Shown here one piece after another: positions 2,520 to 57,098 of a DNA stretch of 64,000 bases (its first letter is position 1; every line of letters begins with the position of its first letter). The DNA is from an uncultured Candidatus Saccharibacteria bacterium. Lineage in GTDB: Bacteria > Patescibacteriota > WWE3 > UBA101185 > UBA10185. Location of the stretch: positions 1,701 through 65,700 of the forward strand of contig CAZCAQ010000003.1 in NCBI GenBank assembly GCA_964496905.1, in the 5' to 3' direction. The notes under the pieces are model-generated. The model had not been told where the DNA came from and ran no database searches. It was given only the letters and a program-made list of their open reading frames with translations. The position numbers and the translations under genes were made by a program.

Positions 2520-3476
2520 ATGAAACACCATATCCTGCCAAACCACAAAACAAAAACACGTGCGACCTTTCTTTCTCAACACTTTTTGGCATTTTACGCA
2601 ATGGCGCTATTTGTGCTCATACACGCGCTCAACTTTATACCAAAAGTAGCCCCAGGAGTTCTAAGTTACGCTTCAAACATAAGTTTTAACGATCTATACA
2701 CAGAAACTAACAAAATTCGCCAGGAACAGGGACTGGCTCAACTAAAGACTAACGATAAGCTCTCTGCTGCGGCTTATAAAAAGGCTCAGCACATGTTTAA
2801 GAATAACTATTGGGCTCATGTTTCTCCCGATGGTACAGAGCCTTGGTACTTTATTCTCAATGAAAATTACGATTATGTTTATGCGGGCGAAAACTTAGCT
2901 AAAAACTTTAATAATTCTCGCGATGTTGTTGAAGCATGGTACAAATCTCCTTCGCACCGCGAAAACCTTTTGAATCCCAATTATGACGAAATTGGCTATG
3001 CTGTTGTAAATGGCGTTTTAGACGGATATCAAACGACTTTAGTGGTTCAAATGTTTGGAAAGTCTAAGCAGCCTAGTTATTCGGCTAGTTCAGATAATGT
3101 TCAGGGTACCGATACGATTCCGTCAGAAAATGAACAAACAGCGCAAATTCCTGTAGAACAGCCAACCGTCGCAGAAATTCCTGAGGATACGGATATCAAA
3201 GAATATGCCCAGCCAAATGTTCCGCAACAAGCCCCGTATCAAGAGGAAATAGTTGTGTACAAGCCATTGCTAACAATTAAAGACGTTACGGCGTTTAATC
3301 AAACGGTTAGCATAGCTTTTGGCGGTTTTTTAGTTTCCTTATTGTCACTCGATTTTTGGTATTCACGCCGAAAAACCATTTTAAAGCCTACGGGTCATAC
3401 TCTTGCGCATATAATGTTTTTAACTATTTTGGTCATAAGTATTTTAGTTTTAATAAAACCAGGAGTAATTCTTTAA
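2520..3476 (+). CDS. CAP/SCP (PR-1-like, YkwD-type) domain protein with Pro/Gln-rich linker and C-terminal TM anchor
   Basis: N-terminal signal/TM, then the CAP signature region YWAHVSPDG...GENLAKNF...AWYKSPSHRENLLNPNYDEIGYA, then a low-complexity linker, then two C-terminal hydrophobic helices. Confidence 0.7.
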   Translation: MKHHILPNHKTKTRATFLSQHFLAFYAMALFVLIHALNFIPKVAPGVLSYASNISFNDLYTETNKIRQEQGLAQLKTNDKLSAAAYKKAQHMFKNNYWAHVSPDGTEPWYFILNENYDYVYAGENLAKNFNNSRDVVEAWYKSPSHRENLLNPNYDEIGYAVVNGVLDGYQTTLVVQMFGKSKQPSYSASSDNVQGTDTIPSENEQTAQIPVEQPTVAEIPEDTDIKEYAQPNVPQQAPYQEEIVVYKPLLTIKDVTAFNQTVSIAFGGFLVSLLSLDFWYSRRKTILKPTGHTLAHIMFLTILVISILVLIKPGVIL

Positions 3477-16497: not shown

Positions 16498-17438
16498 AAA
16501 ATATACCAAAAGTACTTTTGAGAGTATTCTTAAGCTTATTTTTTGTATACTTAACTTTTGCAACAAGTGATATAAGTTTTGATGAAGTTTCCAAGATTAT
16601 AAAATCGGCAAGTACTTGGTATTTTCCACTTATTTTACTTTTAATAGTTTTAAATTATGCCGTTAGTACCCATAGATGGAAGGATTTAGTTCTTGTTGAA
16701 GAAAGCCAAAAGCCCAAGTACTCGAGTTTTTTAAGCCTCTATTTTATTGGTTCTTTTTTTAATAATTTTTTGGTTACATCAATTGGCGGCGACGCATACA
16801 AAATTTATAAGCTTGGTAAAAGAATAAACGATACACCCAAGGCATTTGCCGCGACTTTTATGGATAGGTTTACAGGTTTTTTGGTTTTGATCGCTGTATC
16901 TTATTTTGGATTTTTGTTCACCTGGGAAATGTGGTTTGATTTTGTTAACTCTTTTTTAAACAATCACACTGCAACTTATGCTGTACTAGGCTTAAGTTTA
17001 TTTGGTTTTTGGATATGTACAGGTATATTCTTTCTTTCGCTTAAAGTTTTGGCCAAAAAAGTAAAATCTGCTCAAAAGTTACTTAATGTATTAAGCTTAT
17101 ACAAAAGCTATAAAAATAAAATTGTCATGGCTTTACTTACTTCTTTATTAGTTCAGATTTTAGCCATATTTAGCCAGTATTTTGTGTTTTCAAGCTTAGG
17201 ATACACTATACCTCTTGGGTTTACACTCTTTGTAATTCCAGTTATTACACTAGCTGGCTTTTTTATTCCTTCTATAAATGGAATTGGCGTACAAGACTAC
17301 ATGTATAAAGAGCTTTTTTTGCTTGTTGGAATTCCACCATTAATTTCTTTAAGTGCCTCAATTTTGTACCACTTCTTAAGATTAACAGTAAGTTTGATTG
17401 GAGGGCTATTATATGCAATGGGTAAAGCAGATAGTTAA
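16494..17438 (+). CDS. Flippase-like membrane protein (UPF0104 / lysyl-PG-synthase TM-region family)
   Basis: 314 aa with about 8 TM helices and a central GGD/AYK-containing loop (IGGDAYKIYK). Proteins of this family commonly partner with GT2 enzymes. Confidence 0.4.
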   Translation: MKNIPKVLLRVFLSLFFVYLTFATSDISFDEVSKIIKSASTWYFPLILLLIVLNYAVSTHRWKDLVLVEESQKPKYSSFLSLYFIGSFFNNFLVTSIGGDAYKIYKLGKRINDTPKAFAATFMDRFTGFLVLIAVSYFGFLFTWEMWFDFVNSFLNNHTATYAVLGLSLFGFWICTGIFFLSLKVLAKKVKSAQKLLNVLSLYKSYKNKIVMALLTSLLVQILAIFSQYFVFSSLGYTIPLGFTLFVIPVITLAGFFIPSINGIGVQDYMYKELFLLVGIPPLISLSASILYHFLRLTVSLIGGLLYAMGKADS

Positions 17439-19089
17439 CAAGTTATTATCCAATCAGAATTTAAAAAAGGTCATAGCGGTTGTATTTTTTGTTGTCATTT
17501 ATGTCTTAGTACATTTTTCATATTTAGGTACAAATGAGCTTAACCCAGATGCCGTCAACTGGCACAAGAGGTCTGAACAATTTGTATTGGCGTTTAAAAC
17601 TAAAGACTTTATAAAAACTAACCAACATTATCACCCAGGAGTCACATTAATGTGGATAATAGGGCCATCGGTAGAACTGGTAAAACAATTTACCAATGCT
17701 GGTGTTATTTATAGTTCCGAAAACTATCAGATTTTTCATTTTGTGTCCAAAACGGCTCTAATGCTTGTAAATTTAGTTCTCTCGTTAGTATTAATGTACT
17801 TTTTGCGCAAGATAATTGGTTTTTGGAAATCATTTGCAGTGGTTTTTTTAATGAATATCGAACCGTTTTTTTTGGGAAATTCTCGCATTTTGCACATGGA
17901 TATTCTATTTTCAAGCTTAGTAGCTGTTTGCTTAACTCTAGCGTTTTATGCTTTTAAAAGCCTAAAGTTAAGATTTTTTGCTTTAAGCGGTTTTTTTGCC
18001 GCGCTTACAGTTTTAACACGAAGTGTTGGAATTGGCATAATTTTATACAATCTGGTTTTTTTTGTTTATACAGCAATAATTACAAAAAGTAGAAAATTAA
18101 TAGCTTTAAGCGGCATTTTTGCATTTTCTGTAGTTTTAACGTGTTTTGCTCTTTTTCCTGCCTTGTGGGTTAAACCTATAAAAACGGTTGATAAAATATT
18201 TTCACGCAGTTATCAGGTTGGCGTTGAGTACGGACACAATCAAATTTTTATGAACCAATACACCGAAGATCCAGGGCTCATGTTTTACTTGGCTGCAATA
18301 ACTCTTAAATCCTCACCTTTTGTTCTATTTGGAATATTCTTAGCGATAGTATTTGGTGTTATTCATTTGCGTAAAATAAATAAGACAACTTTATGGAGCG
18401 ACACACTTTTGTGCAAGAATATTTTGTCTTTTACATTGTTCTTGTTAATTTTTTACGCTGGCTACTTTTTGATACTAAATACGTCAAACAAAAAAATAGA
18501 CAGATATATTTTGCCACTTTTTTTCTTTTTTAGTTATGTTTCAGTTTGGGGCTATTTTTACTTGTTCAAAGCTTTTGACCATGTTGTAGTTAAATTGTTA
18601 GTTGGGCTGTTTTTTGTTGTTTCGATTATTTATCCAATTTATAGATTCTCGCCGTATGAGTTTTTGTATTATTCTCCACTTTTTAAAAATAGCGAAGTTG
18701 CAAACAATGTAATTTCTCAAAAAAACTTTGGGATTGGAATTTTTCACCTAAAAAAATTTATTGACGCTAGATATGGGTGTTCTTTAACTACACCTAAAAG
18801 TCCCAAAAACTTTCAACCTGTTATATATGGTGGTACATATGTTTGCCCTTCAAACGTGAGTGCTTTAAACATAGGACTTAGCGATACAAAAGCCATGAAG
18901 GAATTGCATGGTAATTCACGTACAACAGATTTTAGGTTTAACAGTCCATCAATGTATGACGTCTTGGTATTATCAATAGACGAAGAAATGCCCAAAGAAG
19001 TAGTAGAGGATAATCTTACATATATTAAAGATTCCTCAATTTTTGTTAACGATGTAGAGTTATGGAGAATCTATGTTAGAAAAGATTAA
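17398..19089 (+). CDS. GT-C membrane glycosyltransferase, first of three tandem PMT/ArnT-like paralogs
   Basis: Multi-TM with the loop motif WHKRSEQF...YHPGVTLMW shared with the 20533 paralog. An alternative ATG lies at 17413. Confidence 0.6.
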   Translation: MEGYYMQWVKQIVNKLLSNQNLKKVIAVVFFVVIYVLVHFSYLGTNELNPDAVNWHKRSEQFVLAFKTKDFIKTNQHYHPGVTLMWIIGPSVELVKQFTNAGVIYSSENYQIFHFVSKTALMLVNLVLSLVLMYFLRKIIGFWKSFAVVFLMNIEPFFLGNSRILHMDILFSSLVAVCLTLAFYAFKSLKLRFFALSGFFAALTVLTRSVGIGIILYNLVFFVYTAIITKSRKLIALSGIFAFSVVLTCFALFPALWVKPIKTVDKIFSRSYQVGVEYGHNQIFMNQYTEDPGLMFYLAAITLKSSPFVLFGIFLAIVFGVIHLRKINKTTLWSDTLLCKNILSFTLFLLIFYAGYFLILNTSNKKIDRYILPLFFFFSYVSVWGYFYLFKAFDHVVVKLLVGLFFVVSIIYPIYRFSPYEFLYYSPLFKNSEVANNVISQKNFGIGIFHLKKFIDARYGCSLTTPKSPKNFQPVIYGGTYVCPSNVSALNIGLSDTKAMKELHGNSRTTDFRFNSPSMYDVLVLSIDEEMPKEVVEDNLTYIKDSSIFVNDVELWRIYVRKD

Positions 19090-32976: not shown

Positions 32977-35900
32977 ATGAAACAAACCATTATTAAATAT
33001 ACAAAAACAATAGTAGTGCCTCTTTTACTTTATAGTGCAGTAACTTTCTTTCTGCTACATAAAACACTTTTATCAGAAGGAATAATCACGGGCAGTGATT
33101 GGGCAATTCCAGCTACTTCACTACAAGCTGAAAATTACTTTTATAGCAGTTTTTCTACTTGGACAACATTAGGTGGACTTGCTGGCGGATTTAAATCTTT
33201 TTTGACCGACATACCAGTAAGCACTTTCTTTTTTGCTTTAAGCAAGGCTGGGTTTTCTGGAGCTGCAATTTCCAAGATCTTTTTATCAGTAACTTATGTC
33301 ATGGCAGGTTTAGGTATGTATTACCATTTAAGGTATCAAAAGCTAGGTTATGGTATGGCCTTTTTAGGTGGTTTATTGTACATAACTGCTCCATTTTTTT
33401 TTAATTTTACAGTAATAGGTTGGATTTACGCCTTGCTGGGCATGGCATTATTTCCAGTTTATTTAACTGTCCTAGATAAGTCAGTTCGCGAGAAAAAGTT
33501 ATATTTGGCTGTAGCTGCTGGTTTAATTTTTACATTGGCTATGGTTCAATCCACATCTTTATTGTGGTTTAGCGTTGGGACAGGTTCTTTGATGCTTAGT
33601 TATATTAGTGACAGAGTTCAAATTAAAAATTATATAAATTCACTTTTGTGCGTCGGAGTTGTGTTAGTTATTACAAACATATTTTGGTTAGTTAATATTT
33701 TTGGTGATGCAACAGTTACAGGGTCGTCAAATGTGTTAAGTAGTGTAAGTACAGGCACGTGGTCTCGGTTATCAGTTCTTAACATCATTAGGGGTTGGGG
33801 CACATTGTTTAACTATTCTTTCGAAAGTGCATTCGAAAAATCTTTAGTGGCTTTCTCGTTTGTTATGCCTATAGTGTTAGCAGCATATTCATATTTTGTA
33901 AAAGAAGGGCTTAAGATCAAAAAACTTACATATTTAACACTATATCTATTCCCGATTGTATTATTTTTTCTAGGACAAGGTGTTGTATCTAGTATTCCAT
34001 TCGGTAATGTTTTTAGAGATGGGGGAAGAATTTCAGTCACAAGCACTTTTAGCTTAGTTGCATTATCTGTATTGGGATTAAATTATCTTAAAAAAAACAA
34101 GTATTACGGACTTTTTCTTGTGCTGTTAGTGTGCCTGTTAATTAACATGCATCCATTTTTGCGAGGTGACATTTGGAAAGATCAAGAGTACGAAAGTGAT
34201 ATTAGACTACGTACGTACGAATATAATAAAGAGTATGACAAGGTTGAGGCCTACTTAGCTCAAGATGGAAAAACATCCAAGGCTTTATATTTTCCAATTA
34301 CATCGTCTATAGAGGATTTCTCTGACAATGACTTTAGAGGCACTTACAAAGAAATGGCATATTTATATGCAAACATGGCTCCGGTACCAGGTAGCGTTTA
34401 TATATCAGACAAGGAAAAAGATGGTATAAATGGTTTTTACCGGTCCCTCTCTGATGAGATTAAGTGGAATTTTGACAAAGTAGAGCCAACTATTTTCGAC
34501 ATGGTGAATTTTAAGTATTTAGTGTTCTATAAAAAATCCATGGTTGCTACTGATTGGGAAGTTTACTCCAAAGTACAAAAAAGTGAGAATTTTGAAGACA
34601 TAACGACAAAGATTCTAGGTGCAGATCACGATGCAATAGCCGTGTTTAAAATTAAAACACCCAGTCAAGAAATTACAAGTCCAAAAAGTGTGTATATTAC
34701 TAATTCCTCTATAACAAAAGATATTCAGATGCAAACATTAATTAAGAAAAATGGGGTTGCTTTATTTCACCCAACACCCCCAATAAAATCAACAAGTGGC
34801 CTAGATATTGTTGAGGCCGAAAGAATTGATGACTACAAATTACTTAACTACACAAAAAAGGCTACTGACATTTGGGGTTGGCCCAGCGTAAACAACGTCC
34901 CTGGAACTTTTAAATATAGATTAGTCTTAACAAAAGAAAGAATTAATGAGTTTAAAGCTGAAGACGGCTTCGATAAAGTCGATGCTTTGTTGTGGCATGC
35001 GCTAAAAAGAACACAGGAGATACAAAAATATCAAAACACAGATCACACTCAACAATTTGAATCTTTTTCGAATAAGTACGAACAAATTAAGACTGAACTG
35101 GGAACAATTCCAGTTACTGAACGTAAACAACCCTTTTATTCTTCAGTAAATAAGGTTGGATTTTATTTAAAAGAACTTCAGAATATTCAAGGTTTTGAAA
35201 ATTATTTTAAAGATTATAAAGTATTTGTGAATGGGCTTAACTTAATTACTTGCGAGGGTATATGTTATGAAAAAAATATTGATTCCAAGACTACAGTTCC
35301 TATTTTTATTGACGAAACAGAAATTACTACACAGCAGCTTGTTTTTGCAAAAGACACAATTGTATTGAATCACATTGAAGAAATTTTAGTAACAGATGAG
35401 GATTACAAAGCTAGTGGCACCTTTATAAAAGATTTTGGCGAGAAGAACAATCTGTTTAGTTATGTAAATATTGCCGAGAGAATTGTATCCTCAGATATTT
35501 TTAAGAACTTATATATATCCCTAGTGGGCGCAAAGATAGTCGAGTTACCAAGTCTTACCAAAGGCAAAACCTATAGAGTTGATTTTGACTACTATACTTC
35601 TGCAACGCCGATTAAGATCGTATTTATTGAGGATCTCTTAATTGCTAAAGAGGACTTTGATGTCAAAAATGGCAAAAATAATTTTAGCTACCAACCTGTT
35701 GTTACTTCTATGACATCAATCTCTCCGGAAGATCTTGATTCTAGAGACGCTGAAAAACTAGCTCATTTTACAGCAAGGTTCGAGCCCACAGCAATGTCAA
35801 AAAGAACATATTTGTTTATATCTGATGGCATAAATAAAACAAATGCCAGTGAGCAAAAAATTCTAAATTTTAAAGTGACAAAAGAAGATAACGGAAGGCT

Positions 35901-36306
35901 CTTTTTAGCAAAAAAAGAGCCAGAAAAAGCTGTCACACAGCAAACCATAAAGTTTGATAAGCAATCACGTACGCGGTATATAGGCAGAATAGAAAAGCCC
36001 TCAGGGAATTTTGCAATAATCTTAAAGCAAAGGTTCCACCCTGGTTGGGAACTTAAATTACTAAATAAAGTACCTGGTCGTAAATCAGTGACCCCCAAAC
36101 ATTATGCCGCAAATGGATATGCAAACGGTTGGATTGTTGATAGCTCTAGTTTTACAAAAAACGAACCACTAAATTTTGTAATAGAATTTAAGCCTCAGCG
36201 TAAAACCGAAGTTTTGATGGTTATTTCAGGGTTGTTTATTGTTGCTTTTATTTATATAGTTTTAAAGGGTATTTATTTAGACTCTAAAAAGCCAAGTACT
36301 AAATGA
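32977..36306 (+). CDS. Very large (1109 aa) membrane protein: N-terminal polytopic GT-C-like domain, about 650-aa extracytoplasmic region, C-terminal TM anchor
   Basis: Hydropathy only. Architecture reminiscent of AftD/Emb-type arabinosyltransferase layouts, but no diagnostic motif was recognised. Confidence 0.5.
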   Translation: MKQTIIKYTKTIVVPLLLYSAVTFFLLHKTLLSEGIITGSDWAIPATSLQAENYFYSSFSTWTTLGGLAGGFKSFLTDIPVSTFFFALSKAGFSGAAISKIFLSVTYVMAGLGMYYHLRYQKLGYGMAFLGGLLYITAPFFFNFTVIGWIYALLGMALFPVYLTVLDKSVREKKLYLAVAAGLIFTLAMVQSTSLLWFSVGTGSLMLSYISDRVQIKNYINSLLCVGVVLVITNIFWLVNIFGDATVTGSSNVLSSVSTGTWSRLSVLNIIRGWGTLFNYSFESAFEKSLVAFSFVMPIVLAAYSYFVKEGLKIKKLTYLTLYLFPIVLFFLGQGVVSSIPFGNVFRDGGRISVTSTFSLVALSVLGLNYLKKNKYYGLFLVLLVCLLINMHPFLRGDIWKDQEYESDIRLRTYEYNKEYDKVEAYLAQDGKTSKALYFPITSSIEDFSDNDFRGTYKEMAYLYANMAPVPGSVYISDKEKDGINGFYRSLSDEIKWNFDKVEPTIFDMVNFKYLVFYKKSMVATDWEVYSKVQKSENFEDITTKILGADHDAIAVFKIKTPSQEITSPKSVYITNSSITKDIQMQTLIKKNGVALFHPTPPIKSTSGLDIVEAERIDDYKLLNYTKKATDIWGWPSVNNVPGTFKYRLVLTKERINEFKAEDGFDKVDALLWHALKRTQEIQKYQNTDHTQQFESFSNKYEQIKTELGTIPVTERKQPFYSSVNKVGFYLKELQNIQGFENYFKDYKVFVNGLNLITCEGICYEKNIDSKTTVPIFIDETEITTQQLVFAKDTIVLNHIEEILVTDEDYKASGTFIKDFGEKNNLFSYVNIAERIVSSDIFKNLYISLVGAKIVELPSLTKGKTYRVDFDYYTSATPIKIVFIEDLLIAKEDFDVKNGKNNFSYQPVVTSMTSISPEDLDSRDAEKLAHFTARFEPTAMSKRTYLFISDGINKTNASEQKILNFKVTKEDNGRLFLAKKEPEKAVTQQTIKFDKQSRTRYIGRIEKPSGNFAIILKQRFHPGWELKLLNKVPGRKSVTPKHYAANGYANGWIVDSSSFTKNEPLNFVIEFKPQRKTEVLMVISGLFIVAFIYIVLKGIYLDSKKPSTK

Positions 36307-37907
36307 TTATATTAGGTGGTTTAGGTGATCAAATCACAACTTTAGTTTGGGGAACCGTTTCTAAGCCTTTTTTTTCATTTTTAAATTCAGGCTTTGCCGA
36401 ATTCCCACAATATGAAAAATTATTTTGGGATTTTTTGCACCCCTTGCAATCAAACCAGCCTTTAACTTGGTTCTTATACTCTGTACTAATTTCTATTCTT
36501 GGCGCAGGCGGTTATAACTTAATTTTACTTATCAATTTGTTATTAAGTTTTGTATGCGCCTTAGTATTGTTTCGCAAATACAGGTTCTCTTTTGTTTATG
36601 CAGCCATTTTCACCTTTTCTGGCTATATGTGGTCACATTTAGGTTTACATCCAGACTTGATTCAACTATGGCCGATTCCGCTATATTTGTATTTTTTGCT
36701 TGAAAAGCAGAATATGTCAGATTTAAAAAAAAGTATTGTTTTAGCTATGCTAGCTTCGCTGACGCTTGCTTTGTCTAATTACTATGGTTATTTTTTGCTA
36801 ATAACTACAGTTTTCTATGCTGTTATTTGTTTATTTACACTGTTACTCCAAAAAAACAAACTCTCGCTCAATCAAGTACGTAATGCGTTAATTTGGGTTG
36901 GTATAGTACTAGTCTTAAGTTCTACTTTTTTGTATCCCTATATCTCGGCAAACTATTTAACAAAAACAGAGAAGGTAACATTAAACACGCGATTAGCTCT
37001 TGATCGCCCGTATGCGGATTTTTTTACATTTAGTTCAAGACCTTGGTATTTTTTTATTCCATCGCCAAACAATCCTGTATATGGAAATTTATCTGAAAAT
37101 GTATTAACCAAGCTTAAAGATACAAACTATTTTTTGGCAGATGATTACTTTACAGCTGAACATGGTGCAAATTTTTTTGGGTTTATGTTTTTGACTTCAG
37201 TTTTGCTGAGTAGCGTTTTTATGTTTATTAAGACCAAAGGGGATGCGCGTGTAAAGATTGCCCAATTATTCATTTTGCTGTTCTTCCTCTTTTTGTATAT
37301 GCTTCCTCCATTTTTTACTCTTTCTGGAATAAAAATTTATACTCCAGGCCACTTAGCATTTACATATTTCCCCATGTTTAGGGTAACGGCGCGGATTTCT
37401 ATAATAATTTTGCCCATATTACTGCTAATTCTGGCAACAAACATAAACTACATCTGGCTCCATTTTGAGCGGTGGAGGAAATCACTAAAAGTAGCCATGG
37501 TTGCTATGCTACTAGTAACATTGATAGAAGTTTTTAGTATGCCTCCATTACCATCAGCACCTAGTGTCCCAGAGGTTTATACATTTCTCAATAAACATAG
37601 TGACACACGGGCAACCTTTTTTGTTTACCCCTATTCCAAAACCCAAGAGGCGCTGTATTTTTTAAGTGAACATGAAAGATTTTTACTCAATCCTCGTGAT
37701 TACAATTCTGCACAAGTTGCTTCCGAACACATTACTCTAAGATTTGCATCTGATGGTGGGTATGAAGATGTATTAAAATTAAACCCAGACTATATTGTTG
37801 TATTTAAAAACATATCACCTAAGGAAAAAGCAAAAATACTTTCAAGTAAGGAGTTTGAACTTGAACAAGAATTTTCGGATGCATATTTACTAAAAGTTGT
37901 AGAATAA
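36303..37907 (+). CDS. Polytopic membrane protein (GT-C-like), unknown specificity
   Basis: 534 aa with about 12 TM helices and a soluble C-terminus. 4-bp overlap with the upstream gene. Confidence 0.5.
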   Translation: MIILGGLGDQITTLVWGTVSKPFFSFLNSGFAEFPQYEKLFWDFLHPLQSNQPLTWFLYSVLISILGAGGYNLILLINLLLSFVCALVLFRKYRFSFVYAAIFTFSGYMWSHLGLHPDLIQLWPIPLYLYFLLEKQNMSDLKKSIVLAMLASLTLALSNYYGYFLLITTVFYAVICLFTLLLQKNKLSLNQVRNALIWVGIVLVLSSTFLYPYISANYLTKTEKVTLNTRLALDRPYADFFTFSSRPWYFFIPSPNNPVYGNLSENVLTKLKDTNYFLADDYFTAEHGANFFGFMFLTSVLLSSVFMFIKTKGDARVKIAQLFILLFFLFLYMLPPFFTLSGIKIYTPGHLAFTYFPMFRVTARISIIILPILLLILATNINYIWLHFERWRKSLKVAMVAMLLVTLIEVFSMPPLPSAPSVPEVYTFLNKHSDTRATFFVYPYSKTQEALYFLSEHERFLLNPRDYNSAQVASEHITLRFASDGGYEDVLKLNPDYIVVFKNISPKEKAKILSSKEFELEQEFSDAYLLKVVE

Positions 37908-37911
37908 ACAT

Positions 37912-39354
37912 ATGAAGAATTTTATGTTAATTTTTTTGAGCGGTTTTTTAGTTTATTTTGGCTCATTCATGTTTGTCTATTTTTCTGGACTTAACACTTT
38001 GCCAATTCAATCCGAAGATACAGTGCCCGCAATGTTTATTCCAGTTACTTTGCTAAAAGAAGGCACTTTTTATGCTGATACATACTACGATATGATGCTT
38101 GATCGGTATCCGCATCCTGATGATAGAAATGGAAAGGATGGGCTAGTTCCGTTTTATATTAAACGCATCCAAAGTAACGAAAGCGCACCTTGCCAAAAGC
38201 TTCCCGCTGGTATGACCGCGACTTGTTTTAAAACGCACTACGTCACCGCATTCACACTAACACCGGGAATACTTGCAACTCCTGTTTATTTGCCTGCACT
38301 GCTAGCTGGTATGCAGATTACTTGGGAAAATCTCATACTGTTATCACACATGGCTGCAGCTTTAATAATGTCATTTTCCGGGGGTTTTATGTACATTCTG
38401 CTTAAAAAGCATTTTTTTCCGCAACCCGATCAAGACAAAAAAGCGATCTTTTTAACCTCAATTTATCTTTTTGCCACAGTTAACTTTGCTATGCTTTCAC
38501 AGTCTTTGTGGCAACACGGAGCATTGCAGCTGTTTACAATTGCGGGGCTGATATTTTTGTTAAATGCGCTAAAAAACCAAAAACCTGCTCATTTTGCACT
38601 TTTTGGATTCTTTTTGTCGCTAGCAGTAATTACGCGTCCAACTGCGGCATTGTTTGCAGTTTTGTTATATTTACTAATTCCGCTCACACTAAAAAAGCAA
38701 GGCATAAAACCCACTATTTACACTTTTTTGGGAGTTTTGCCTGTTGTAGCATTTTTTGTTTGGTACACGCTTGTATATTACGGAGGTTTTTCAAATAATG
38801 GATACGCTTCGCAAATGGGGAACAGCTGGATCTCTCCACTTTGGGAGGGCTTTTTGGGCATTTGGGTGTCTCCTAGCAAAGGCATTTTGATTTACTCGCC
38901 TGTTTTGTTCTTTTCACTAGTTGGCGCATATAAAGCCTTTAAAAACAAATCTTTGGAAAATCGGCCACTTTTTTTGCTCAGCGTCGTAATCATCGTTTTG
39001 CACACTTTAGTAATGGGGAAGTGGAAACACTGGTTTGGAGGTTTTTCTTTTGGTTACCGCCTAGCGAGCGATGTTTTGCCATTTTTTATAATTTTGCTCG
39101 CTTCCTATGTTTTGTCTGATTTGTATGCGCGCACCCGCAAAGTGTTTTATGTATTATTTGCGTTTTCAGTTGGAGTTCAGCTGATGGGAATGGTGTTTTT
39201 TGATGGAATTTGGCACAACGCTTACGATATGGGTTTTAAGGATACTCGCTGGCTTTGGTCGTTGCAGGATTCCGAGGCTGCTTTTAATGTTCGTCGGGTG
39301 TTAGTGAAGTCAGGGTATCTGGAGCGAGCGTGTCCGGAGTGTCTGCCGAATTAG
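37912..39354 (+). CDS. Polytopic membrane protein (GT-C-like), unknown specificity
   Basis: 480 aa, multi-TM. The last about 25 codons are GC-rich and overlap the 3' end of the convergent gene. Confidence 0.5.
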   Translation: MKNFMLIFLSGFLVYFGSFMFVYFSGLNTLPIQSEDTVPAMFIPVTLLKEGTFYADTYYDMMLDRYPHPDDRNGKDGLVPFYIKRIQSNESAPCQKLPAGMTATCFKTHYVTAFTLTPGILATPVYLPALLAGMQITWENLILLSHMAAALIMSFSGGFMYILLKKHFFPQPDQDKKAIFLTSIYLFATVNFAMLSQSLWQHGALQLFTIAGLIFLLNALKNQKPAHFALFGFFLSLAVITRPTAALFAVLLYLLIPLTLKKQGIKPTIYTFLGVLPVVAFFVWYTLVYYGGFSNNGYASQMGNSWISPLWEGFLGIWVSPSKGILIYSPVLFFSLVGAYKAFKNKSLENRPLFLLSVVIIVLHTLVMGKWKHWFGGFSFGYRLASDVLPFFIILLASYVLSDLYARTRKVFYVLFAFSVGVQLMGMVFFDGIWHNAYDMGFKDTRWLWSLQDSEAAFNVRRVLVKSGYLERACPECLPN

Positions 39355-42623: not shown

Positions 42624-43747
42624 AAGTAGCCTTTTGTGGCAGAACAGACTTGTTTAAATATAAAGGAGGGGATGCCGTACAAATGGAGCAAACGGCAAAA
42701 GAGCTAGAAAAGCTTGGCGTGCACGTTGACATAAAAACTCATTGGGACTTTGACTATGCACAATATGAATTAATTCACATATTCCAGCTGGATTGGGTTT
42801 CGGAAAACTATTTGTATGCAGAGGCAGCGCAAAAAGCGGGTAAAAAAATTGTACTTTCTCCAATTCATCATAATGTAAATGAAGTAAAAGCTTACGATGA
42901 CAATTTTGTATTTGGTTATCGCAGACTTTCGTCCTTGGTATTACGCAATCAATTTCACCGCGATACGCTAAAAATCTTTTACCGAGCTCTTTCCAACCCA
43001 GAAAAACGAATTCCTGCGTTTTACGCAATAACTTATGGACTTAAGAATCTGCACAAAAAAACCATAAAAGCCTCAAGCAAGGTTTTAGTTCAAACTCACT
43101 TGGAAGCCGAAGATTTAAAAAAGGCTTACACCACAGATTTTGAATGGGTTTTAGTTCCAAATGGTGTTGGTGACGTTTTTTTGTCACAACCAGAAATGCT
43201 TAGCAATTTTCTGCCATTTTCTGATTACATTTTAAGCGTAGGCCGTATTGAAGCCCGAAAAAATCAACTTAACATTATTGAAGCGGTAAAAAAACTCCGC
43301 TTACAAACTGGGCAAGACCTTAAACTTGTTTTTGTTGGTCAATTTAGTCTTTCTCATAAAGAGTATACACAGCACTTTAAGGAACAACTTTCGCAAAACC
43401 CATGGATTACTCACATTGAAAAGGTCGACTATGAAAAAATGCCTTCAGTATACAAATTTGCAAAAGTTGCAGTTTCAGCAAGTTGGTTTGAAACAACTGG
43501 ATTAACCAGTTTAGAGGCCTTGTATTGCGGTTCAAATGCTGTTGCATCGGGAAAAAGAGCTAATGAGTTGTTAGGTTCGCAAGTTTCATATTGTGACCCT
43601 TCTAGTGTAGAATCTATTTCAAGCGCCATTTTGACGCAGCTTCAAAAACCAAGACCAGTAATTTCTAAAGATTTTAAAGCACAGTATACTTGGAAGAATG
43701 CTGCTGAAAAAACTCTTAAGGTATATACGGATATAATTGATGAATAA
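42620..43747 (+). CDS. GT4-family glycosyltransferase
   Basis: ETTGLTSLEALYCGSNAVAS. Confidence 0.7.
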   Translation: MKVAFCGRTDLFKYKGGDAVQMEQTAKELEKLGVHVDIKTHWDFDYAQYELIHIFQLDWVSENYLYAEAAQKAGKKIVLSPIHHNVNEVKAYDDNFVFGYRRLSSLVLRNQFHRDTLKIFYRALSNPEKRIPAFYAITYGLKNLHKKTIKASSKVLVQTHLEAEDLKKAYTTDFEWVLVPNGVGDVFLSQPEMLSNFLPFSDYILSVGRIEARKNQLNIIEAVKKLRLQTGQDLKLVFVGQFSLSHKEYTQHFKEQLSQNPWITHIEKVDYEKMPSVYKFAKVAVSASWFETTGLTSLEALYCGSNAVASGKRANELLGSQVSYCDPSSVESISSAILTQLQKPRPVISKDFKAQYTWKNAAEKTLKVYTDIIDE

Positions 43748-46646
43748 TTACGAATTACTTATTGGAATAGCTATTTTTTCAGTGGGATTTTATGCCCTTG
43801 TCAGAGATTTTAAACTCTTTATCTATATTTTGCTCTTTTCAAGCGTTTTAATTCACAAAGAAATGTTTAGCCTGTATATGTGGGACTTTATGCCAATTCG
43901 CTTTTTAATGCTTGCTTTGTCTTTTTATGTAGTTGGGGCCTTCTTTTTAGCACTTTTTACTGCGCTGAGAGAAAGGAATATGCATCAACGACTTGAGTTA
44001 ACTAAAATTTCTCAGTACTTAAGGGATCCTTTTATCATTAGTTTGACTTTGCTCTGGCTAGTAAGAGGTTTTTCTCTAGTGTTTTCAAAAGATATTAGGT
44101 CTAGTGTGGAGCTTTATGCCTTTTTTACATCTATTTATTTGGCATCTCTTTTTATTTACATAAGGTTAAAATCAAGGCCTTTGCACGTTATATTGTATCT
44201 GGATTTTTATATTGCCATTGTTTTTGCACTCTGTATGTTTGGGTTTTTACAATTATTTTTAAGTTCCAATTATAACTTTACTATTGGAGCATTTTGGCAA
44301 ATTCCCGGACATAGCCCACGCGTTGGAAGTCTTTTTTGGGATGTAAATCACTTTGGAGCGTTTATTGCCTCATTATTTTTATACGGATGTGCTAGGTTTT
44401 TGGCAGTTTCAGGCTTAAAACGCAAAATACTTTACGGCATTTTACTTTTGCCAATTCCCATAATTTTGTATTTAACTAATTCACGCAGCTCTTTATTGCT
44501 ATTAATCAGTGCTTCTGCGCTTTTTGGCTTTATTGTATTGTTCAAAAAAATCGGTAACAAAGCTTTTGGCCTTACAGCATTAGTGGCCCTTTTTGCATTT
44601 TTGACCTTTTTTTATACATATTCAGATGAAAACTCTAAAGTTAGCAAGGTTATTCGTAGTAACTTACATTACAGAATTGATTCTTTTGATTCGCACTTTT
44701 TATTGCTATCTGGTGCTTCGGAAGTATTTACAGAAAATCCTATATTAGGAGGTGGCTACGGGAGTTTTTATGCCCAATTTATGGAAACCTCCATTTCATC
44801 AGAATATCTTAGGCGTGATCCAGCTGGTTTATTAACAAAAGTTCCTGCACACACAATTTGGGGTGAGGTAGCTTCTGAAACGGGCATGTTAGGTTTTTCC
44901 GCTTTTCTGTTTTTATGTCTAATAATTACAGCTGTACCTTTTTATAATTTTTTGGTCAGTAACTCGTATAAGGATTATTTAGTTCATGGCGCCATATTTT
45001 CTTCAATAATAGGCTATTTTGTCGCTGGCATATTTTATTCTTATAATTCTGAATTTTTTTGGCTTGTCTTAATTTTATACACAACGTATGGAATAGCAAA
45101 ATTGATTCAAAACATGCCTGTTGTAATTAATAATCCAAATCCAAGCTTTACCTTTGGTTTGTTAAAAAAGGCAGTAATGTTTATTGAAGTTAAAATAAAC
45201 GCAGGATTTATTTTACTTGGACTTTTAACATTTTCATTAATATTTATAAATTTGGGGAAAAACACTTTAATTACATGGGACGAAGCAATATACGGAAAAA
45301 TTGCTAAAAATATTGTTCAAACAGGTGAGTGGTTAACTTTGCAATGGAAGGTAGGTTCCACTTGGTTTGAAAAGCCCCCACTTTACTTTTGGTCAACGGC
45401 ATTTTTTATGAAAATCTTTGGTATAAACGAATTTGCAGTTAGATTAACAAGTGCGCTTAGTGGCTTTGGTTCTATTATGGTTTTAACCTACTTTGCAAAA
45501 AAAATATATGGGCGAAGCGTAGGGTATTTAGCAGGATTTATTCTATTGACCACTTTTCAGTTTTTGTATTACGCACGAACCGGCATGCTTGACGTTACTC
45601 TCACTTTTTTTATTACTACTGCTTTGGTAATTTACTTTCTTGGTGCAAAAATGCTTAGGACATTTGTACTAGCGGGTGTATTTGTAGGATTAGCAGTGCT
45701 AACAAAAGGTGTAGTAGGTTTTTTACCTTTACTAATAATACTAATCTTTGAATTAGTTATGTTGCCAAAAACCAAAAAATTAAGCGAACTAGTTAACGTT
45801 TTTTACATTTTTGTATTCTCAGCAATAGTTTTTATGCCATGGCATGCCTATATGCTGGGTTTATATGGTAATAAGTTTTACGACAACTACATTGTTTATC
45901 ATGTTTTGCAACGTGCTTCAACAGCAATTGAAGGAAAAGGCCAGCCCTTTTGGTGGTATTTTGTAGTAATGAAAGTTAGTATGCGCTTATGGTTTTTGGC
46001 ATTACTGGTAGCGCTTCCTTTTACTACCACTTGTGTGTTATTTAGAAAAAAAATGGAGAAGTTTAACTTTTTGTTTTCAAATAATGAGATACGTGGGTTA
46101 ATATTTACATTAGTCTGGTTTATAGTTGTAGCACTTTTCTTTTCATCAGCGATCTCTAAACTTATTTGGTACATAATTCCTATATATGTTCCAGCTGCAC
46201 TGATTTGCGCATTTACAATAGTTGTAATTTTAAGAAACTTTTTCTCAAAGTTTGCTAAAAATATAGTTGATGAAATGGTTTTTGTAACGATCTTTTTTAT
46301 TTTTATGTTCACTTTTACTTACTTTTATGTTGAAAAAGGTCGCGTTTATACAAGTGACTTAAATTATGCTCAGGCCTTTGTACTTAAGCAGTCAAGTGTT
46401 AAGTATCCAAATGAGACTGTGCTTGTCGATAGAATTGAATCCCCAGTCACATTTTACTATCGCGATGGGCCTTATGCAGAAGTTGATTTTCAACAAATCC
46501 GAGCTTCTCTTAGTAAAAGCTCAGAAAAGCCTACAATTTTTATTACTAATAAAAAAAGATTTGTTCAGCTTGAAAAAGAATTTTTGGGACTTTCCAATGT
46601 AGATCAGGCTGGAGATTTTATACTTGCCTATTATCTTAAACAATGA
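43737..46646 (+). CDS. Fusion protein: N-terminal O-antigen-ligase-like (Wzy_C) polytopic domain + C-terminal PMT_2/ArnT-family GT-C domain
   Basis: Residues about 1-450 are multi-TM with a NSRSSLLLLISASALFG...GGGYGSF region typical of the O-antigen ligase/Wzy_C family. Residues about 480-969 have the PMT/ArnT first-loop signature LITWDEAIYGKIAKNIVQTGEWLTLQW...EKPPLYFW (DE motif). Confidence 0.55.
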   Translation: MMNNYELLIGIAIFSVGFYALVRDFKLFIYILLFSSVLIHKEMFSLYMWDFMPIRFLMLALSFYVVGAFFLALFTALRERNMHQRLELTKISQYLRDPFIISLTLLWLVRGFSLVFSKDIRSSVELYAFFTSIYLASLFIYIRLKSRPLHVILYLDFYIAIVFALCMFGFLQLFLSSNYNFTIGAFWQIPGHSPRVGSLFWDVNHFGAFIASLFLYGCARFLAVSGLKRKILYGILLLPIPIILYLTNSRSSLLLLISASALFGFIVLFKKIGNKAFGLTALVALFAFLTFFYTYSDENSKVSKVIRSNLHYRIDSFDSHFLLLSGASEVFTENPILGGGYGSFYAQFMETSISSEYLRRDPAGLLTKVPAHTIWGEVASETGMLGFSAFLFLCLIITAVPFYNFLVSNSYKDYLVHGAIFSSIIGYFVAGIFYSYNSEFFWLVLILYTTYGIAKLIQNMPVVINNPNPSFTFGLLKKAVMFIEVKINAGFILLGLLTFSLIFINLGKNTLITWDEAIYGKIAKNIVQTGEWLTLQWKVGSTWFEKPPLYFWSTAFFMKIFGINEFAVRLTSALSGFGSIMVLTYFAKKIYGRSVGYLAGFILLTTFQFLYYARTGMLDVTLTFFITTALVIYFLGAKMLRTFVLAGVFVGLAVLTKGVVGFLPLLIILIFELVMLPKTKKLSELVNVFYIFVFSAIVFMPWHAYMLGLYGNKFYDNYIVYHVLQRASTAIEGKGQPFWWYFVVMKVSMRLWFLALLVALPFTTTCVLFRKKMEKFNFLFSNNEIRGLIFTLVWFIVVALFFSSAISKLIWYIIPIYVPAALICAFTIVVILRNFFSKFAKNIVDEMVFVTIFFIFMFTFTYFYVEKGRVYTSDLNYAQAFVLKQSSVKYPNETVLVDRIESPVTFYYRDGPYAEVDFQQIRASLSKSSEKPTIFITNKKRFVQLEKEFLGLSNVDQAGDFILAYYLKQ

Positions 46647-51555: not shown

Positions 51556-52770
51556 TTAGTACCGCAAAAAACTGCTGATTTTTCCTCTGGTGCGATCTGC
51601 GCGTAATGTATCGGCGGTTATAACAGTAAATTCCCCAAAAGCATCATTAATTGAGTCTTTAGTTTTAATAATTTTCTCAGTTTTAACATGGTCCGAAAAC
51701 AAATCCAAAGTACGTCCTTTATTTTCCACAAGGTTTGAAATGGAAATACCTACAAGGCGTGTTTCTTTGTTCCACCGCATTTGCTTTATTAGATCGCATC
51801 CTGCTTCGTAAATTTCGGTTTCGCTGTCGGTTGGAAGAAGAAGGGTAGTCCGGTTGCCCGACCAAGCTCTATTGGAATCTCGCAGGCTTACATGGATCGT
51901 TTTCCCCTTCATTTCATAGCGACGCATGCGGCGCGCTGCCATTTCGCACAATCTATGTAGGTTTTTTTTAATTACGCGAGGATCTTTTGTATTTTGAGAC
52001 AGTGTATGCTGATGGCCTATGGATTTTGGTTTTTCGCGTTTGTAGTTTAGTCCGCTTACTGCAATATCTCCTTTGCCAAAACTGGCTTTTTTTAAAAATC
52101 CGCTTTCGGCTATGCCAAATTCTAGATATAGGTTTTCTATAGGAGTTTTTTGCAAGTCTTCGACGGTAAAAACTCCTAGTTTATTGAGGCGGGCTTCAAT
52201 GCGTGGCCCAATTCCGCAAAAATCTCGCAACTTAGTTTTATAAAGTACTTCGGTCAAATTATCTTTATCCACCAAGCACATTCCATTTGGCTTATTTATG
52301 TCTGAAGCAAGCTTTGCCAAAAGCTTGTTAAAGCTAATACCAATAGAACAGGTAATCCACGGGCCAAAAGCGTGGTAAAAATCATTTTTAATAAGGCCTG
52401 CCAAGTTTATAGGATTACTAAAAAATTTGAGAGTATCAGTTACATCAATAAAAGCTTCGTCAATGCTAAAAGGCTCAATTTGATCGGTGTATTTTTGGTA
52501 AATTTGTAGGGTTTGCGCCTGTATATACGAATATTTTGACGCATCTCCCTTAACGGGAATGATTTGCGGGCATATTTTGCGCGCTTCGAACAAAGGCATG
52601 CCTGTTTTTACGCCAAACTTTTTGGCTTCGCGTGAAGCGGCGCAAACCACACCGCGTGATAGTGAGCTTCCCGTTACGCCAATAGGTTTTCCCCGCAAAA
52701 AAGGGTTGGCCTGTTGTTCCACCGAAGCAAAAAAACTGTCAAAATCAATGTGAAAGATAGTTTTTTGCAT
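51556..52770 (-). CDS. dinB: DNA polymerase IV (Y-family translesion polymerase)
   Basis: N-terminus IFHIDFDSFFASVEQQANPFLRGKPIGVTG...SRGVVCAASREAKKFGVKTGMPL. 404 aa. Confidence 0.85.
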   Translation of the reverse strand: MQKTIFHIDFDSFFASVEQQANPFLRGKPIGVTGSSLSRGVVCAASREAKKFGVKTGMPLFEARKICPQIIPVKGDASKYSYIQAQTLQIYQKYTDQIEPFSIDEAFIDVTDTLKFFSNPINLAGLIKNDFYHAFGPWITCSIGISFNKLLAKLASDINKPNGMCLVDKDNLTEVLYKTKLRDFCGIGPRIEARLNKLGVFTVEDLQKTPIENLYLEFGIAESGFLKKASFGKGDIAVSGLNYKREKPKSIGHQHTLSQNTKDPRVIKKNLHRLCEMAARRMRRYEMKGKTIHVSLRDSNRAWSGNRTTLLLPTDSETEIYEAGCDLIKQMRWNKETRLVGISISNLVENKGRTLDLFSDHVKTEKIIKTKDSINDAFGEFTVITADTLRADRTRGKISSFLRY

Positions 52771-53050
52771 TTTTTGGCTCGTTTAGGCTTTTATCCTTTC
52801 TAAAGCCTTCAAAGAAAATTTCGTCCAATTGCCAAGTAAGGTCTTGAGTATTAAAAGTTATGTTAAATGCTTCTTTTTCAGTGGAAACGGCAAAATGCAC
52901 CATTTGGGCCTTTCCTTGGTGAGAGATGTGCGTAAAGTTAACTTCGCTTATTTTGAATTTTTTGCCTCGCCAAGTGATTAAAAGGGGAATAGGGCGTCTA
53001 GCCGTAAAGTGAACTATGGCTTCGATTTGTTCGTTAATCTTTTCAAACAC
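52745..53050 (-). CDS. Small protein (101 aa) overlapping and presumably co-transcribed with dinB
   Basis: 26-bp overlap with the dinB start on the same strand. The position matches YolD/UmuD-like accessory genes of Y-family polymerase operons, but the sequence is not diagnostic. Confidence 0.4.
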   Translation of the reverse strand: MFEKINEQIEAIVHFTARRPIPLLITWRGKKFKISEVNFTHISHQGKAQMVHFAVSTEKEAFNITFNTQDLTWQLDEIFFEGFRKDKSLNEPKNAKNYLSH

Positions 53051-53555: not shown

Positions 53556-53583
53556 TTGACAAAATCCCCCTCTAAACTACAAT
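53556..53583 (+). promoter_or_regulatory. Sigma70-like promoter (TTGACA-N16-TACAAT) for glyQS, predicting a leaderless or near-leaderless mRNA
   Basis: The -10 element ends 9 nt before the glyQS ATG. Confidence 0.4.
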
Positions 53584-53592
53584 GAAAAAGCT

Positions 53593-56402: not shown

Positions 56403-56408
56403 TGGTTT

Positions 56409-56437
56409 TTGACTCAATCAGTGGCCTATAGTATAAT
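56409..56437 (+). promoter_or_regulatory. Near-consensus sigma70 promoter TTGACT-N17-TATAAT
   Basis: Perfect -10 element, 5/6 -35 match, 17-bp spacer. A strong SD (AAGGAGG) lies 5 nt before the 56473 ATG. Confidence 0.5.
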
Positions 56438-56472
56438 TAACGCATTGAAATCTTAAGGCCAAGGAGGAAACA

Positions 56473-56880
56473 ATGGCCACCTTTGTGTTTGTGGTTTTAT
56501 TTGGGGTTTTGTCCAGTTGCGGATCCGTTGCTGCGCAAGCTGTACCGACCGTGCAACCAATACAGCCTGTGTTTGATCCAACACCGACCCCTGCCCCTCC
56601 CGACGGTGGTGTATACATAGTCAGTGGCGATGTGTTTTCAATTGGTTTTGGTCCTTATACGTATAGTTCTTTGTATTGGGAGCAGGACGGAACCAACCCT
56701 GGTGTATACGGTAGTGCTAACTTGGTTACAATACCCTGTGGTGAATACTTTGGCGTATTTGTGGTAGGTACTTATGGTAGCCGAGCAACTTGTGCCGAGG
56801 CTATAGTACGGGTTTATTCAGAAAGTGGCATGGTTTATGCAGTACGGAATAAATCATTAAATGTTACTATTCTGAAGTGA
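56473..56880 (+). CDS. Small secreted/lipoprotein-like Cys-containing protein (135 aa)
   Basis: Signal peptide MATFVFVVLFGVLSSCGSVAAQA (lipobox-like LSSC or an AQA cleavage site). Pro/Thr linker. Two Cys in the mature part. GC content visibly higher than the surrounding genes. Confidence 0.55.
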   Translation: MATFVFVVLFGVLSSCGSVAAQAVPTVQPIQPVFDPTPTPAPPDGGVYIVSGDVFSIGFGPYTYSSLYWEQDGTNPGVYGSANLVTIPCGEYFGVFVVGTYGSRATCAEAIVRVYSESGMVYAVRNKSLNVTILK

Positions 56881-56899
56881 CCTGTTCAGCTCTTAGTTT

Positions 56900-56922
56900 C
56901 GTTCTCGACATATGTCGAACGA
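56900..56922. promoter_or_regulatory. 14-bp perfect palindrome TCGACATATGTCGA (with flanking CGTTC/GAACG), candidate protein-binding site or weak hairpin
   Basis: Located 25 nt after the stop of the small secreted-protein gene. No U-tract follows. Confidence 0.3.
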
Positions 56923-57063
56923 TCCTTTGAGCTTGACCCAAAAATATAATCTCTATGTTTTTAGGCCAGGCTCAAAAAACACTCTTCCATTTTTTATTTA
57001 GCATCAAATTTCCCTTTGCATTCAACCTTTCGGGTATTATTTGTGTTGACGTCAGTCCATAAA

Positions 57064-57098
57064 TGGTGTTTTATGGTAGGTAATGGTGAAGATTGGTG
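57064..57098 (+). promoter_or_regulatory. Four direct repeats of TGGT(G/A) at exact 10-bp periodicity, candidate MraZ operator overlapping the mraZ promoter
   Basis: aATGGTGtttt-ATGGTAggta-ATGGTGaaga-TTGGTGaaat. A putative -35 TTGACG lies at 57046 and the -10 TTTTAT at 57069. The geometry matches the repeated TGGGN-type boxes bound by MraZ in E. coli. Confidence 0.5.

Follow-up and report, generated by a model that had tools for sequence, protein, structure and literature searches.

Why does one small gene differ strongly between bacterial strains whose neighbouring genes are nearly identical? This question is raised by a 135-aa open reading frame (ORF) at 56473..56880 (+) of the stretch of DNA analysed here, 64,000 nucleotides of contig CAZCAQ010000003.1 (the 64-kb window). 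The ORF ends with a stop codon at 56878-56880, has no in-frame start upstream, and lies between the genes of a RelA/SpoT-like protein and of MraZ. Among named MraZ proteins, the nearest ones (68-71% identity) come from candidate division WWE3 and Patescibacteria, so the genome was assigned to a WWE3-related lineage of the Candidate Phyla Radiation (CPR). It was found that the ORF is a real protein-coding gene with a core under purifying constraint, and that it is the most variable single gene of an otherwise highly conserved neighbourhood. The composite explanation that we favour, with confidence a little above even, is that it encodes a strain-variable lipoprotein that is made in abundance, tethered at the cell surface and subject to diversifying selection.

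The encoded protein belongs to a family of eight members (denoted by P numbers, and the lineages or loci by L numbers), six of which were located at the same position between RelA/SpoT and mraZ. When the window was compared with three other lineages, the protein identities were 89-90% for glycyl-tRNA synthetase (GlyRS), 82% for RelA, 90-93% for MraZ, 85-86% for RsmH and 80-81% for the penicillin-binding protein (PBP), and that of the lipoprotein was 39-50%. The pattern was most pronounced between L009 and L010, in which RelA and MraZ were 100% and GlyRS 99% identical and the lipoproteins 40% identical. At the DNA level, these two loci were 100% identical as far as the -10 box of the promoter (>1.4 kb), 30-60% identical across the following ∼500 bp, and 88-100% identical from the second of two 3' hairpins (HP1 and HP2, see below) onward. 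Within the ORF, the proportions of synonymous (pS) and nonsynonymous (pN) differences were 0.74 and 0.47, respectively, while the synonymous divergence (dS) of the flanks was 0.004 for RelA and 0.035 for MraZ. The saturated synonymous sites and the sharp edges indicated that old alleles were placed by recombination, rather than that the differences arose by recent mutation. A recent burst of mutation or selection was excluded, because it would raise the nonsynonymous divergence (dN) but not dS. Beside the same MraZ sequence, or contiguous with identical flanks, allele P0011 was recovered six times and allele P0002 three times, each time in an independent assembly; therefore neither of them is an assembly artefact. 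Moreover, the MraZ of the window was nearest to that of L014 (97%), yet the lipoproteins of these two were 34% identical, and the lipoprotein of the window was nearest to that of L010 (50%). The relationships of the alleles thus contradict those of the flanks. This extreme variability with its sharp edges, like the conserved structures 3' of the gene, had gone unnoticed in the preliminary description.

Fast drift of a dispensable, weakly constrained gene, with variability that reflects relaxed selection and has no adaptive meaning, was considered as an alternative. The gene is missing in sister lineages and hence non-essential, and the family is small and confined to a narrow clade. Where it could be estimated, the dN/dS ratio (omega) of the lipoprotein was 0.15-0.48, a value that is approximate at such divergence, as compared with 0.02-0.11 for the neighbours, so the protein is constrained, but far less than its neighbours. 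However, drift cannot saturate the synonymous sites of one gene between flanks that diverged so little. The edges of the divergence are sharp, the allele tree is at odds with the flank tree, and the promoter, the Shine-Dalgarno (SD) sequence, HP2, the lipobox cysteine and the core residues are all conserved. Drift was accordingly judged to be quite unlikely.

Variation could also be produced inside each genome, by a diversity-generating retroelement (DGR), by integron-type cassette exchange or by gene conversion from silent copies. The restriction of the divergence to one gene with sharp edges and the structured element at the 3' boundary would agree with such a mechanism, and DGRs are common in CPR genomes. 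Nevertheless, neither protein nor DNA comparisons revealed a second copy or fragment of the gene, in a scan that covered the 64 kb of the window and ∼10 kb of each other locus. A DGR variable protein was rejected since no reverse transcriptase is encoded in the window, no part of the gene is repeated, and the differences are gene-wide, saturated synonymous sites included, and are not confined to an A-biased variable region. An integron cassette was rejected since the unit is a single cassette with its own promoter, its hairpins carry no GTTRRRY core, and no tyrosine recombinase is encoded in the window; nor was any other integrase or recombinase. We regard variation generated within the genome as the least probable of all the explanations considered. 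Deep alleles in near-identical backgrounds, sharp edges and allele-flank incongruence were all observed, as would be expected of hypervariable surface-antigen loci under balancing selection, a functional class and not a homology family.

A second strain-variable insertion was noticed in the same neighbourhood. A 467-aa ORF with no Pfam match lies between a 101-aa ORF and GlyRS in L008 (579-1982) and L010 (584-1987), and it is missing in L009, L004 and the window. This insert is unlinked to the lipoprotein allele, as L008 and L009 share P0011 and differ in the insert.

The product was examined for signs of export. The precursor starts with MATFVFVVLFGVLSS, which leads to C16; its hydrophobic region ends in ...VLFGVLSS-C16 and is followed by a linker and a domain of ∼90 residues. 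The LSSC motif, which had been described as lipobox-like, agrees with the PROSITE PS51257-type pattern ([LVI][ASTVI][GAS]-C, Cys within residues 15-35), as do the corresponding segments of five of the eight members in total, and a Cys after a hydrophobic N-terminus is present in all eight. The stricter Gram-positive pattern G+LPP (K/R in the n-region and [AG] at -1) was matched by three of eight members, P0003, P0010 and P0011. The two cysteines described earlier hold for the mature domain (C89 and C107, both invariant in 8/8 members); the precursor has three, with the lipobox Cys16 as the third. These features support an exported, surface-tethered lipoprotein, in keeping with the surface or exported protein proposed before, in which Cys16 would be lipidated and the mature part exposed at the surface.

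The preliminary description had also offered a bacteriocin-like peptide or an effector, which would be secreted without lipidation and released by signal peptidase I. A candidate site for this enzyme, AQA|V (residues 21-23|24), does follow the hydrophobic segment of the window allele, whose n-region has no K/R, and the two cysteines and the strong expression signals would suit such a factor. But the AXA motif was not kept in any relative and the Cys was kept in all of them, so that a lipoprotein is the better-supported reading. The mature part consists of a long tether and a folded 90-aa beta domain, a layout that is typical of anchored proteins, and no genes for immunity, ABC export or modification were found adjoining either locus of the family. 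With the lipobox conserved and no immunity, processing or export genes in the window, the bacteriocin-like peptide did not find support, and a secreted non-lipidated factor in general appears very improbable.

The Pro/Thr linker that had been noticed earlier was found at residues ∼17-44. Within it, the two threonines (T37 and T39) of a (P/V)T(P/V)T motif are invariant in 8/8 members, and the rest of the linker is variable. The window that encodes this PTPT-linker protein also encodes PMT-family GT-C enzymes, including a Wzy_C-PMT fusion, which could be relevant to a possible O-glycosylation of the linker. The full-length AlphaFold2 (AF2) model has a mean predicted local distance difference test (pLDDT) score of 79.8 with a disordered tether. 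The domain alone was modelled as a nine-strand all-beta fold with a pLDDT of 90.5 and a predicted template modelling (pTM) score of 0.82, in which C89 and C107 probably form a disulfide. The residues F55, W69, G77, Y79, G80, T86, C89 and C107 of the domain are invariant in the eight members.

A word-indexed search with the single protein returned only itself. Exhaustive phmmer yielded four relatives of 137-146 aa (E 5e-19 to 5e-9), and a profile search three more; the family is small, confined to a narrow clade, unnamed and unannotated. No match for any of the eight members was found in Pfam, NCBIfam, PHROGs or PADLOC, and no fold match for the domain model was found by Foldseek in PDB or BFVD. 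A resemblance to C-type lysozyme (PDB phmmer E ∼0.24) was inflated by hundreds of near-identical entries and disappeared with the eight-member profile. Weak phmmer multi-repeat matches of Ig-like/fn3 type to three giant proteins were rejected as well, as the hhalign probability was only 1.6-3.2%, and no structural match to Ig/fn3 was better than E ∼3 and TM ∼0.2 in Foldseek. The protein family, its fold and its conserved hairpin in the 3' untranslated region (3'UTR) are undescribed.

A near-consensus promoter TTGACT-N17-TATAAT and an AAGGAGG sequence had been reported ahead of the 135-aa ORF, and each of these elements was confirmed at its position. The promoter matches the consensus at 11 of 12 positions; sites with at least 11/12 matches occurred twice in the window versus 2.8 ± 1.9 times in Markov shuffles, and both are intergenic, each facing a gene. 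The significance of the promoter lies in its conservation across lineages, not in the quality of the match. TTGAC-N17-TATAAT is present in five of the six syntenic lineages (the -35 element of L014 is TTGATC), and it is identical, together with AAGGAGG and the ATG-GCC start, across the first four aligned lineages (the window, L004, L009 and L010). The extended -10 block CCYATAGTATAAT is identical in 8/8 lineages, including those in which the gene lies at a second locus. Among the lineages that keep the promoter and SD signals, the dS of the flanking genes ranges from 0.3 to >2. AAGGAGG occurs just twice on the + strand of the window, and the duplex of this site with the anti-SD sequence, -11.2 kcal/mol, ranks first among the 53 ORFs of the window. 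The promoter, the SD sequence and ATG-GCC are constant and the coding sequence behind them is hypervariable; the variant of the 5' untranslated region (5'UTR) tracks the allele class, not the flanks. These results support strong expression signals under selection. The signals for the very high expression suggested in the preliminary description are thus present, and a high level may be expected from them. The other site with at least 11/12 matches, TTGACA-N16-TACAAT at 53556-53584, closely precedes the GlyRS gene, which starts at 53593.

Two hairpins were found directly 3' of the stop codon in every lineage, and the outer 3' arm of HP1 overlaps the 5' arm of HP2. The inner stems of HP1 are wholly different between alleles, with five of six core pairs changed on both sides, and the same shape is formed from different sequences in L010 and L014. 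In HP2, 99.4% of the cells are paired across eight lineages, with three compensatory pairs and seven pairs kept via G-U. The HP2 covariance model gave one match per occupied locus, with 72-84 bits on the + strand versus 31-50 on the - strand, and no match in the empty sites or elsewhere in the window. Since HP2 is covarying, strand-specific and confined to the module, it is an RNA structure of the 3'UTR of the lipoprotein gene. A dispersed repeat or a general type of terminator was rejected, because the window holds a single copy and HP2 occurs only inside the module. No Rfam match was found for the hairpins. We propose that HP2 acts as a terminator, an insulator or a stabiliser of the mRNA; at the second locus, it stands just before the promoter for ribosomal protein L21.

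The guanine plus cytosine (GC) content of the gene, which had been noted as elevated, especially at ∼56500-56640, was then calculated. The ORF has a GC content of 0.461 versus 0.359 for the window, the highest of the 53 ORFs (mean 0.362, standard deviation 0.029, z ∼3.4), and the observation was thereby verified. The GC content peaks at 0.54 over 150 nt at 56475-56624, and the linker by itself reaches 0.607. Codon positions 1 and 2 account for most of the excess: the value at position 2 (GC2), 0.485, is the highest of the ORFs of the window, and that at position 3 (GC3) is 0.360 versus an ORF mean of 0.297 (standard deviation 0.040). In the window allele, therefore, the excess reflects mostly the amino-acid composition, with its Pro, Ala, Gly and Thr codons, and foreign GC as the sole cause was rejected for this allele. 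At all eight loci the ORF lies 8-16 GC points above its surroundings, and the GC3 of the family is 0.36-0.62 versus 0.23-0.36 in flanking genes, being highest in the second-locus alleles and lowest in the window allele. The amino-acid content thus accounts for the window allele, but not for the family, whose raised GC3 might be due to an origin in a GC-richer donor with unequal amelioration, to codon selection in a highly expressed gene, or to GC-biased gene conversion at a recombination hot spot.

The promoter, gene and hairpins are present or absent together. In the sister lineages L024-L031, RelA/SpoT is followed by a gap of 140-160 bp and then by the mraZ promoter block, with the ORF, HP1 and HP2 all missing; the MraZ proteins of the nearest of these sisters are 86% (L024) and 78% (L028) identical. 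In the alignment of occupied and empty sites, homology resumes at CTTTCGGGTATTATTTG. The empty site of L024 contains at 2350-2366 the sequence AACCTATAATATAAGG, which is similar to the left end of the module, AACCTATAGTATAATAA, and may be either a remnant left by the loss of the module or a coincidence in AT-rich DNA; nothing similar was seen in L028. The most distant members, P0005 and P0009 (27-28% identity), were found at another locus (L006 and L015) in the order LytR_C protein, ORF, ribosomal protein L21, just downstream of FtsW/RodA. The same -10 block precedes the ORF there, and the same HP1 and HP2 follow it. The non-coding ends are thus better conserved than the protein, and the unit was gained, lost or relocated as a whole. 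At this second locus (L015 873-1259 (-) and L006 4861-4873 (-)), an inverted CCTATAGTATAAT lies ∼85 nt upstream of the module's own copy, where it faces a divergent gene for an 83-aa predicted membrane protein with its own AAGGAGG. Its position before a divergent gene implies that the block behaves as a strong-promoter consensus in this clade.

A phage-derived moron, that is, a superinfection-exclusion lipoprotein that blocks a phage receptor or DNA entry and whose alleles track different phages, could account for some of these features. The unit has its own promoter, one ORF and 3' hairpins, deviates in composition with GC3 raised family-wide, is present or absent between conserved genes among lineages, and encodes a small lipoprotein with a probable disulfide. 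However, no integrase, transposase, reverse transcriptase or phage genes were found in the window or beside any locus, and besides the lack of matches in PHROGs and PADLOC, no homologue was found in GenBank phages or IMG/VR. The 28 IMG/VR matches to an 18-nt HP2 pattern have neither the 3' arm nor the family ORF and were attributed to chance. A prophage at the site was rejected, given the neighbours RelA/SpoT, GlyRS and mraZ-rsmH-ftsL-PBP, the absence of phage genes from the window and the absence of matches in the phage collections. The moron explanation is therefore considered unlikely.

About equally unlikely, in our estimate, is an accessory lipoprotein of peptidoglycan synthesis or division, which would be LpoB-like, with a small domain on a flexible linker that regulates PBP or FtsW. 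One locus lies directly upstream of mraZ-rsmH-ftsL-PBP and the other directly downstream of FtsW/RodA and LytR_C, and the lipobox, the ∼28-aa disordered linker and the small folded domain match the architecture of LpoB. But between the same genomes the would-be partners are conserved (PBP 80-89%, FtsL 75-82%) while the lipoproteins are 34-58% identical. Near-identical strains carry 40%-identical alleles, sister lineages with the same division and cell wall (dcw) cluster have no such gene, and no homology to any Lpo family was found.

The earlier suggestion that the gene was possibly acquired was upheld in part. The module is missing in sisters, occurs at a second locus and has been exchanged among strains that are otherwise nearly identical. 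That it was imported recently from outside the clade did not find support, as the gene is at the same position in six lineages and the GC excess of the window allele is mostly amino-acid driven. It is conceivable, although we give this a low probability, that the ∼620-bp unit is a new mobile type of surface-display cassette in CPR bacteria, whose ends (CCTATAGTATAAT and HP2) would serve both as expression signals and as handles for exchange or relocation. The displayed domain, for whose fold no relative is known, would then select the host cell or phage with which the bacterium can pair.

Under the explanation favoured here, a strain-variable surface lipoprotein under diversifying selection, the conserved near-consensus promoter and the strongest ribosome-binding site of the window would drive high expression. 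After its export by the Sec pathway, the precursor would receive a lipid at Cys16 that anchors it in the outer leaflet of the cytoplasmic membrane, and the ∼28-residue Pro/Thr tether would keep the ∼90-residue all-beta domain, with its probable C89-C107 disulfide, off the membrane, at or through the cell wall. HP1 and HP2 may end or stabilise the transcript and shield the MraZ-regulated dcw operon, which starts ∼70 nt further on, from read-through. The displayed domain would form a strain-variable recognition surface. Within the population, deeply diverged, old alleles would persist, and homologous recombination via the conserved flanks would carry them from one genome to another that is otherwise nearly identical. 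Such a pattern is expected where phages, host cells or competitors impose diversifying, negative frequency-dependent selection. In a CPR bacterium, which presumably lives attached to cells, natural candidates would be a phage receptor or decoy, or a host-contact protein.

Several observations weigh against this explanation. The 11/12 promoter match alone is not beyond chance in an AT-rich window, and the expression level is deduced from sequence signals. The window allele (MATFVFV) has no K/R in the n-region; a K/R was seen there in 6/8 members, or 7/8 if P0005 starts at an upstream GTG, but the positive charge of this region is a usual, not an absolute, feature of lipoproteins. With Ser at -1 and no K/R, the window allele fails the G+LPP pattern, and the lipobox of the P0005/P0009 subgroup, L-K-[AS]-C, is atypical. 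Neither lgt nor lspA was found within the window. The fold model was built on an alignment of only eight sequences. Both hairpins are devoid of a U-tract and were not called intrinsic terminators, so a terminator role is tentative. Both loci of the family adjoin peptidoglycan or division genes, which could mean a housekeeping role. Since omega never exceeded 1 and is unreliable at such divergence, positive selection was deduced from the pattern rather than measured. So far, just two allele classes were seen in one near-identical background.

Table 1. Elements of the module and of its predicted product, with positions in the 64-kb window
Feature	Position	Strand	Remarks
Whole module (promoter, 5'UTR, coding sequence, two hairpins, A/T-rich spacer)	56403..57025	+	∼620 bp, right edge approximate
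Sigma-70-type promoter	56409..56437	+	-35 TTGACT 56409-56414, spacer 17 nt, -10 TATAAT 56432-56437
Conserved extended -10 block CCTATAGTATAAT	56425-56437	+	13-mer; single occurrence in the window
5'UTR	56438..56472	+	holds SD sequence AAGGAGG 56461-56467, ATG 5 nt further
Predicted lipoprotein precursor, coding sequence	56473..56880	+	135 aa; 7 homologues of 137-150 aa
Predicted signal peptide with lipobox L-S-S-C	56473..56520	+	Cys16 codon 56518-56520; PS51257-type pattern
Pro/Thr/Ala/Val-rich disordered tether, residues 17-44	56521..56604	+	PTPT motif, GC peak; pLDDT 49-65
Mature all-beta domain, residues 45-135	56605..56877	+	nine strands, C89 and C107; AF2 domain model
HP1, three-tier hairpin right after the stop codon	56884..56937	+	core 56899-56922; -21.9 kcal/mol, z = -5.8
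HP2, 21-bp 3'UTR RNA hairpin	56926..56976	+	conserved, without U-tract

The positions of these elements are collected in Table 1. The genes upstream of the module encode RecO, DinB (- strand), GlyRS and the RelA/SpoT-like protein (with HD, RelA_SpoT and TGS domains), and those downstream encode MraZ, RsmH, FtsL, PBP, an RDD protein, a UPF0102 protein and a LytR_cpsA_psr protein. A probable mraZ promoter/operator was observed at 57046-57098, with TTGACG at 57046-57051, a 17-nt spacer and TTTTAT at 57069-57074. It is overlaid by four direct TGGTR repeats with an exact period of 10 bp (57064, 57074, 57084 and 57094), which resemble the MraZ-box arrays of E. coli, and the block is nearly invariant in all lineages, including the relatives with empty sites. 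On the other side of GlyRS, the 101-aa ORF at 52745-53050 (-) belongs to no family and shares 26 nt with the start of DinB; it was found at the same position in all related loci, with 67-72% identity to the window and 87-97% among closer relatives. A contig scan with RelA gave only one distant, non-syntenic locus, and a scan of metagenome DNA with a 24-mer of the right flank gave 0 matches.

The first ∼50 kb of the window (1-50400) are occupied by a nearly unbroken same-strand series of genes for glycan or polysaccharide biosynthesis, with many glycosyltransferases of the GT2 and GT4 families, UDP-glucose dehydrogenase, flippases, Bac_transf proteins, methyltransferases and a radical SAM enzyme. 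Three PMT-family GT-C enzymes are among them, one being the 969-aa Wzy_C-PMT fusion at 43737-46646. Five large ORFs of this cluster have no Pfam match (E <= 1e-5) and lie at 10659-12218, 17398-19089 and 32977-39354; three of them follow one another (1109, 534 and 480 aa, of which the 480-aa one looks polytopic), and the other two have 519 and 563 aa. A CAP (cysteine-rich secretory protein/SCP) domain is present in a 318-aa protein that is encoded next to the cluster, at 2520-3476. No tRNA or Rfam families were found in the window.

The CPR bacteria (Patescibacteria), which are uncultured, presumably live in attachment to other cells, and the majority of their small proteins lack annotation. 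To our knowledge, almost nothing is known on the CPR surface molecules that decide partner or phage specificity, for which this locus provides a concrete, testable candidate. It might be used as a strain marker in metagenomes and as an entry point to the interacting host or phage protein. It would also exemplify, in environmental ultra-small bacteria, the frequency-dependent upkeep of old alleles that is known from pathogens. Searches of the literature revealed no account of a locus of this kind in CPR bacteria.

Among known systems, OspC of Borrelia is a polymorphic single-copy surface lipoprotein with old allele classes under balancing selection. The locus described here resembles it as a single-copy lipoprotein gene with deep allele classes in near-identical backgrounds, recombination via flanks and disagreement between alleles and flanks. 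Unlike the helical OspC, the present protein has a ∼90-aa all-beta domain with no PDB match and no sequence relationship to OspC; its divergence is far deeper (50-70% of residues), and its gene is chromosomal, beside the dcw cluster. Vertebrate immunity cannot be what drives the variation here, as this CPR bacterium is environmental. The Vlp, Vsp and Vpma proteins of Mycoplasma are similar in that a small-genome, host-dependent bacterium combines a constant promoter and 5' end with a variable mature part of a presumably surface-abundant protein. These are, however, multigene families with tandem repeats that vary by promoter slippage or site-specific inversion, while here one copy was found, with no internal repeats, invertase or silent copies, and the differences lie between strains rather than within a clone.

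Phage morons such as T5 Llp and TP-J34 Ltp are likewise autonomous promoter-ORF-hairpin units of atypical composition that are present or absent and encode a small lipoprotein; the present unit differs in lying outside any prophage, away from phage genes, and in having no homologue in the PHROGs, GenBank phage and IMG/VR collections. With LpoB of E. coli it shares the lipobox, the long disordered linker, the small globular domain and, at both loci, the proximity to peptidoglycan-synthesis genes, but there is no homology, and it is hypervariable and dispensable between sisters whereas its would-be partners are conserved. The mycobacterial 19-kDa lipoprotein LpqH, with its O-mannosylated Thr-rich linker, is comparable in the Thr/Pro segment after the lipidated Cys and in the small two-Cys beta domain, and PMT-family glycosyltransferases are encoded in the same 64-kb window. 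No Pfam match to the LpqH family or to any other family was obtained, glycosylation of the present linker is a mere possibility, and we know of no hypervariability of LpqH. The protein is a homologue of none of these systems; it probably represents a strain-variable surface lipoprotein with an unrelated fold, encoded by a compact promoter-to-hairpin module in a CPR host.

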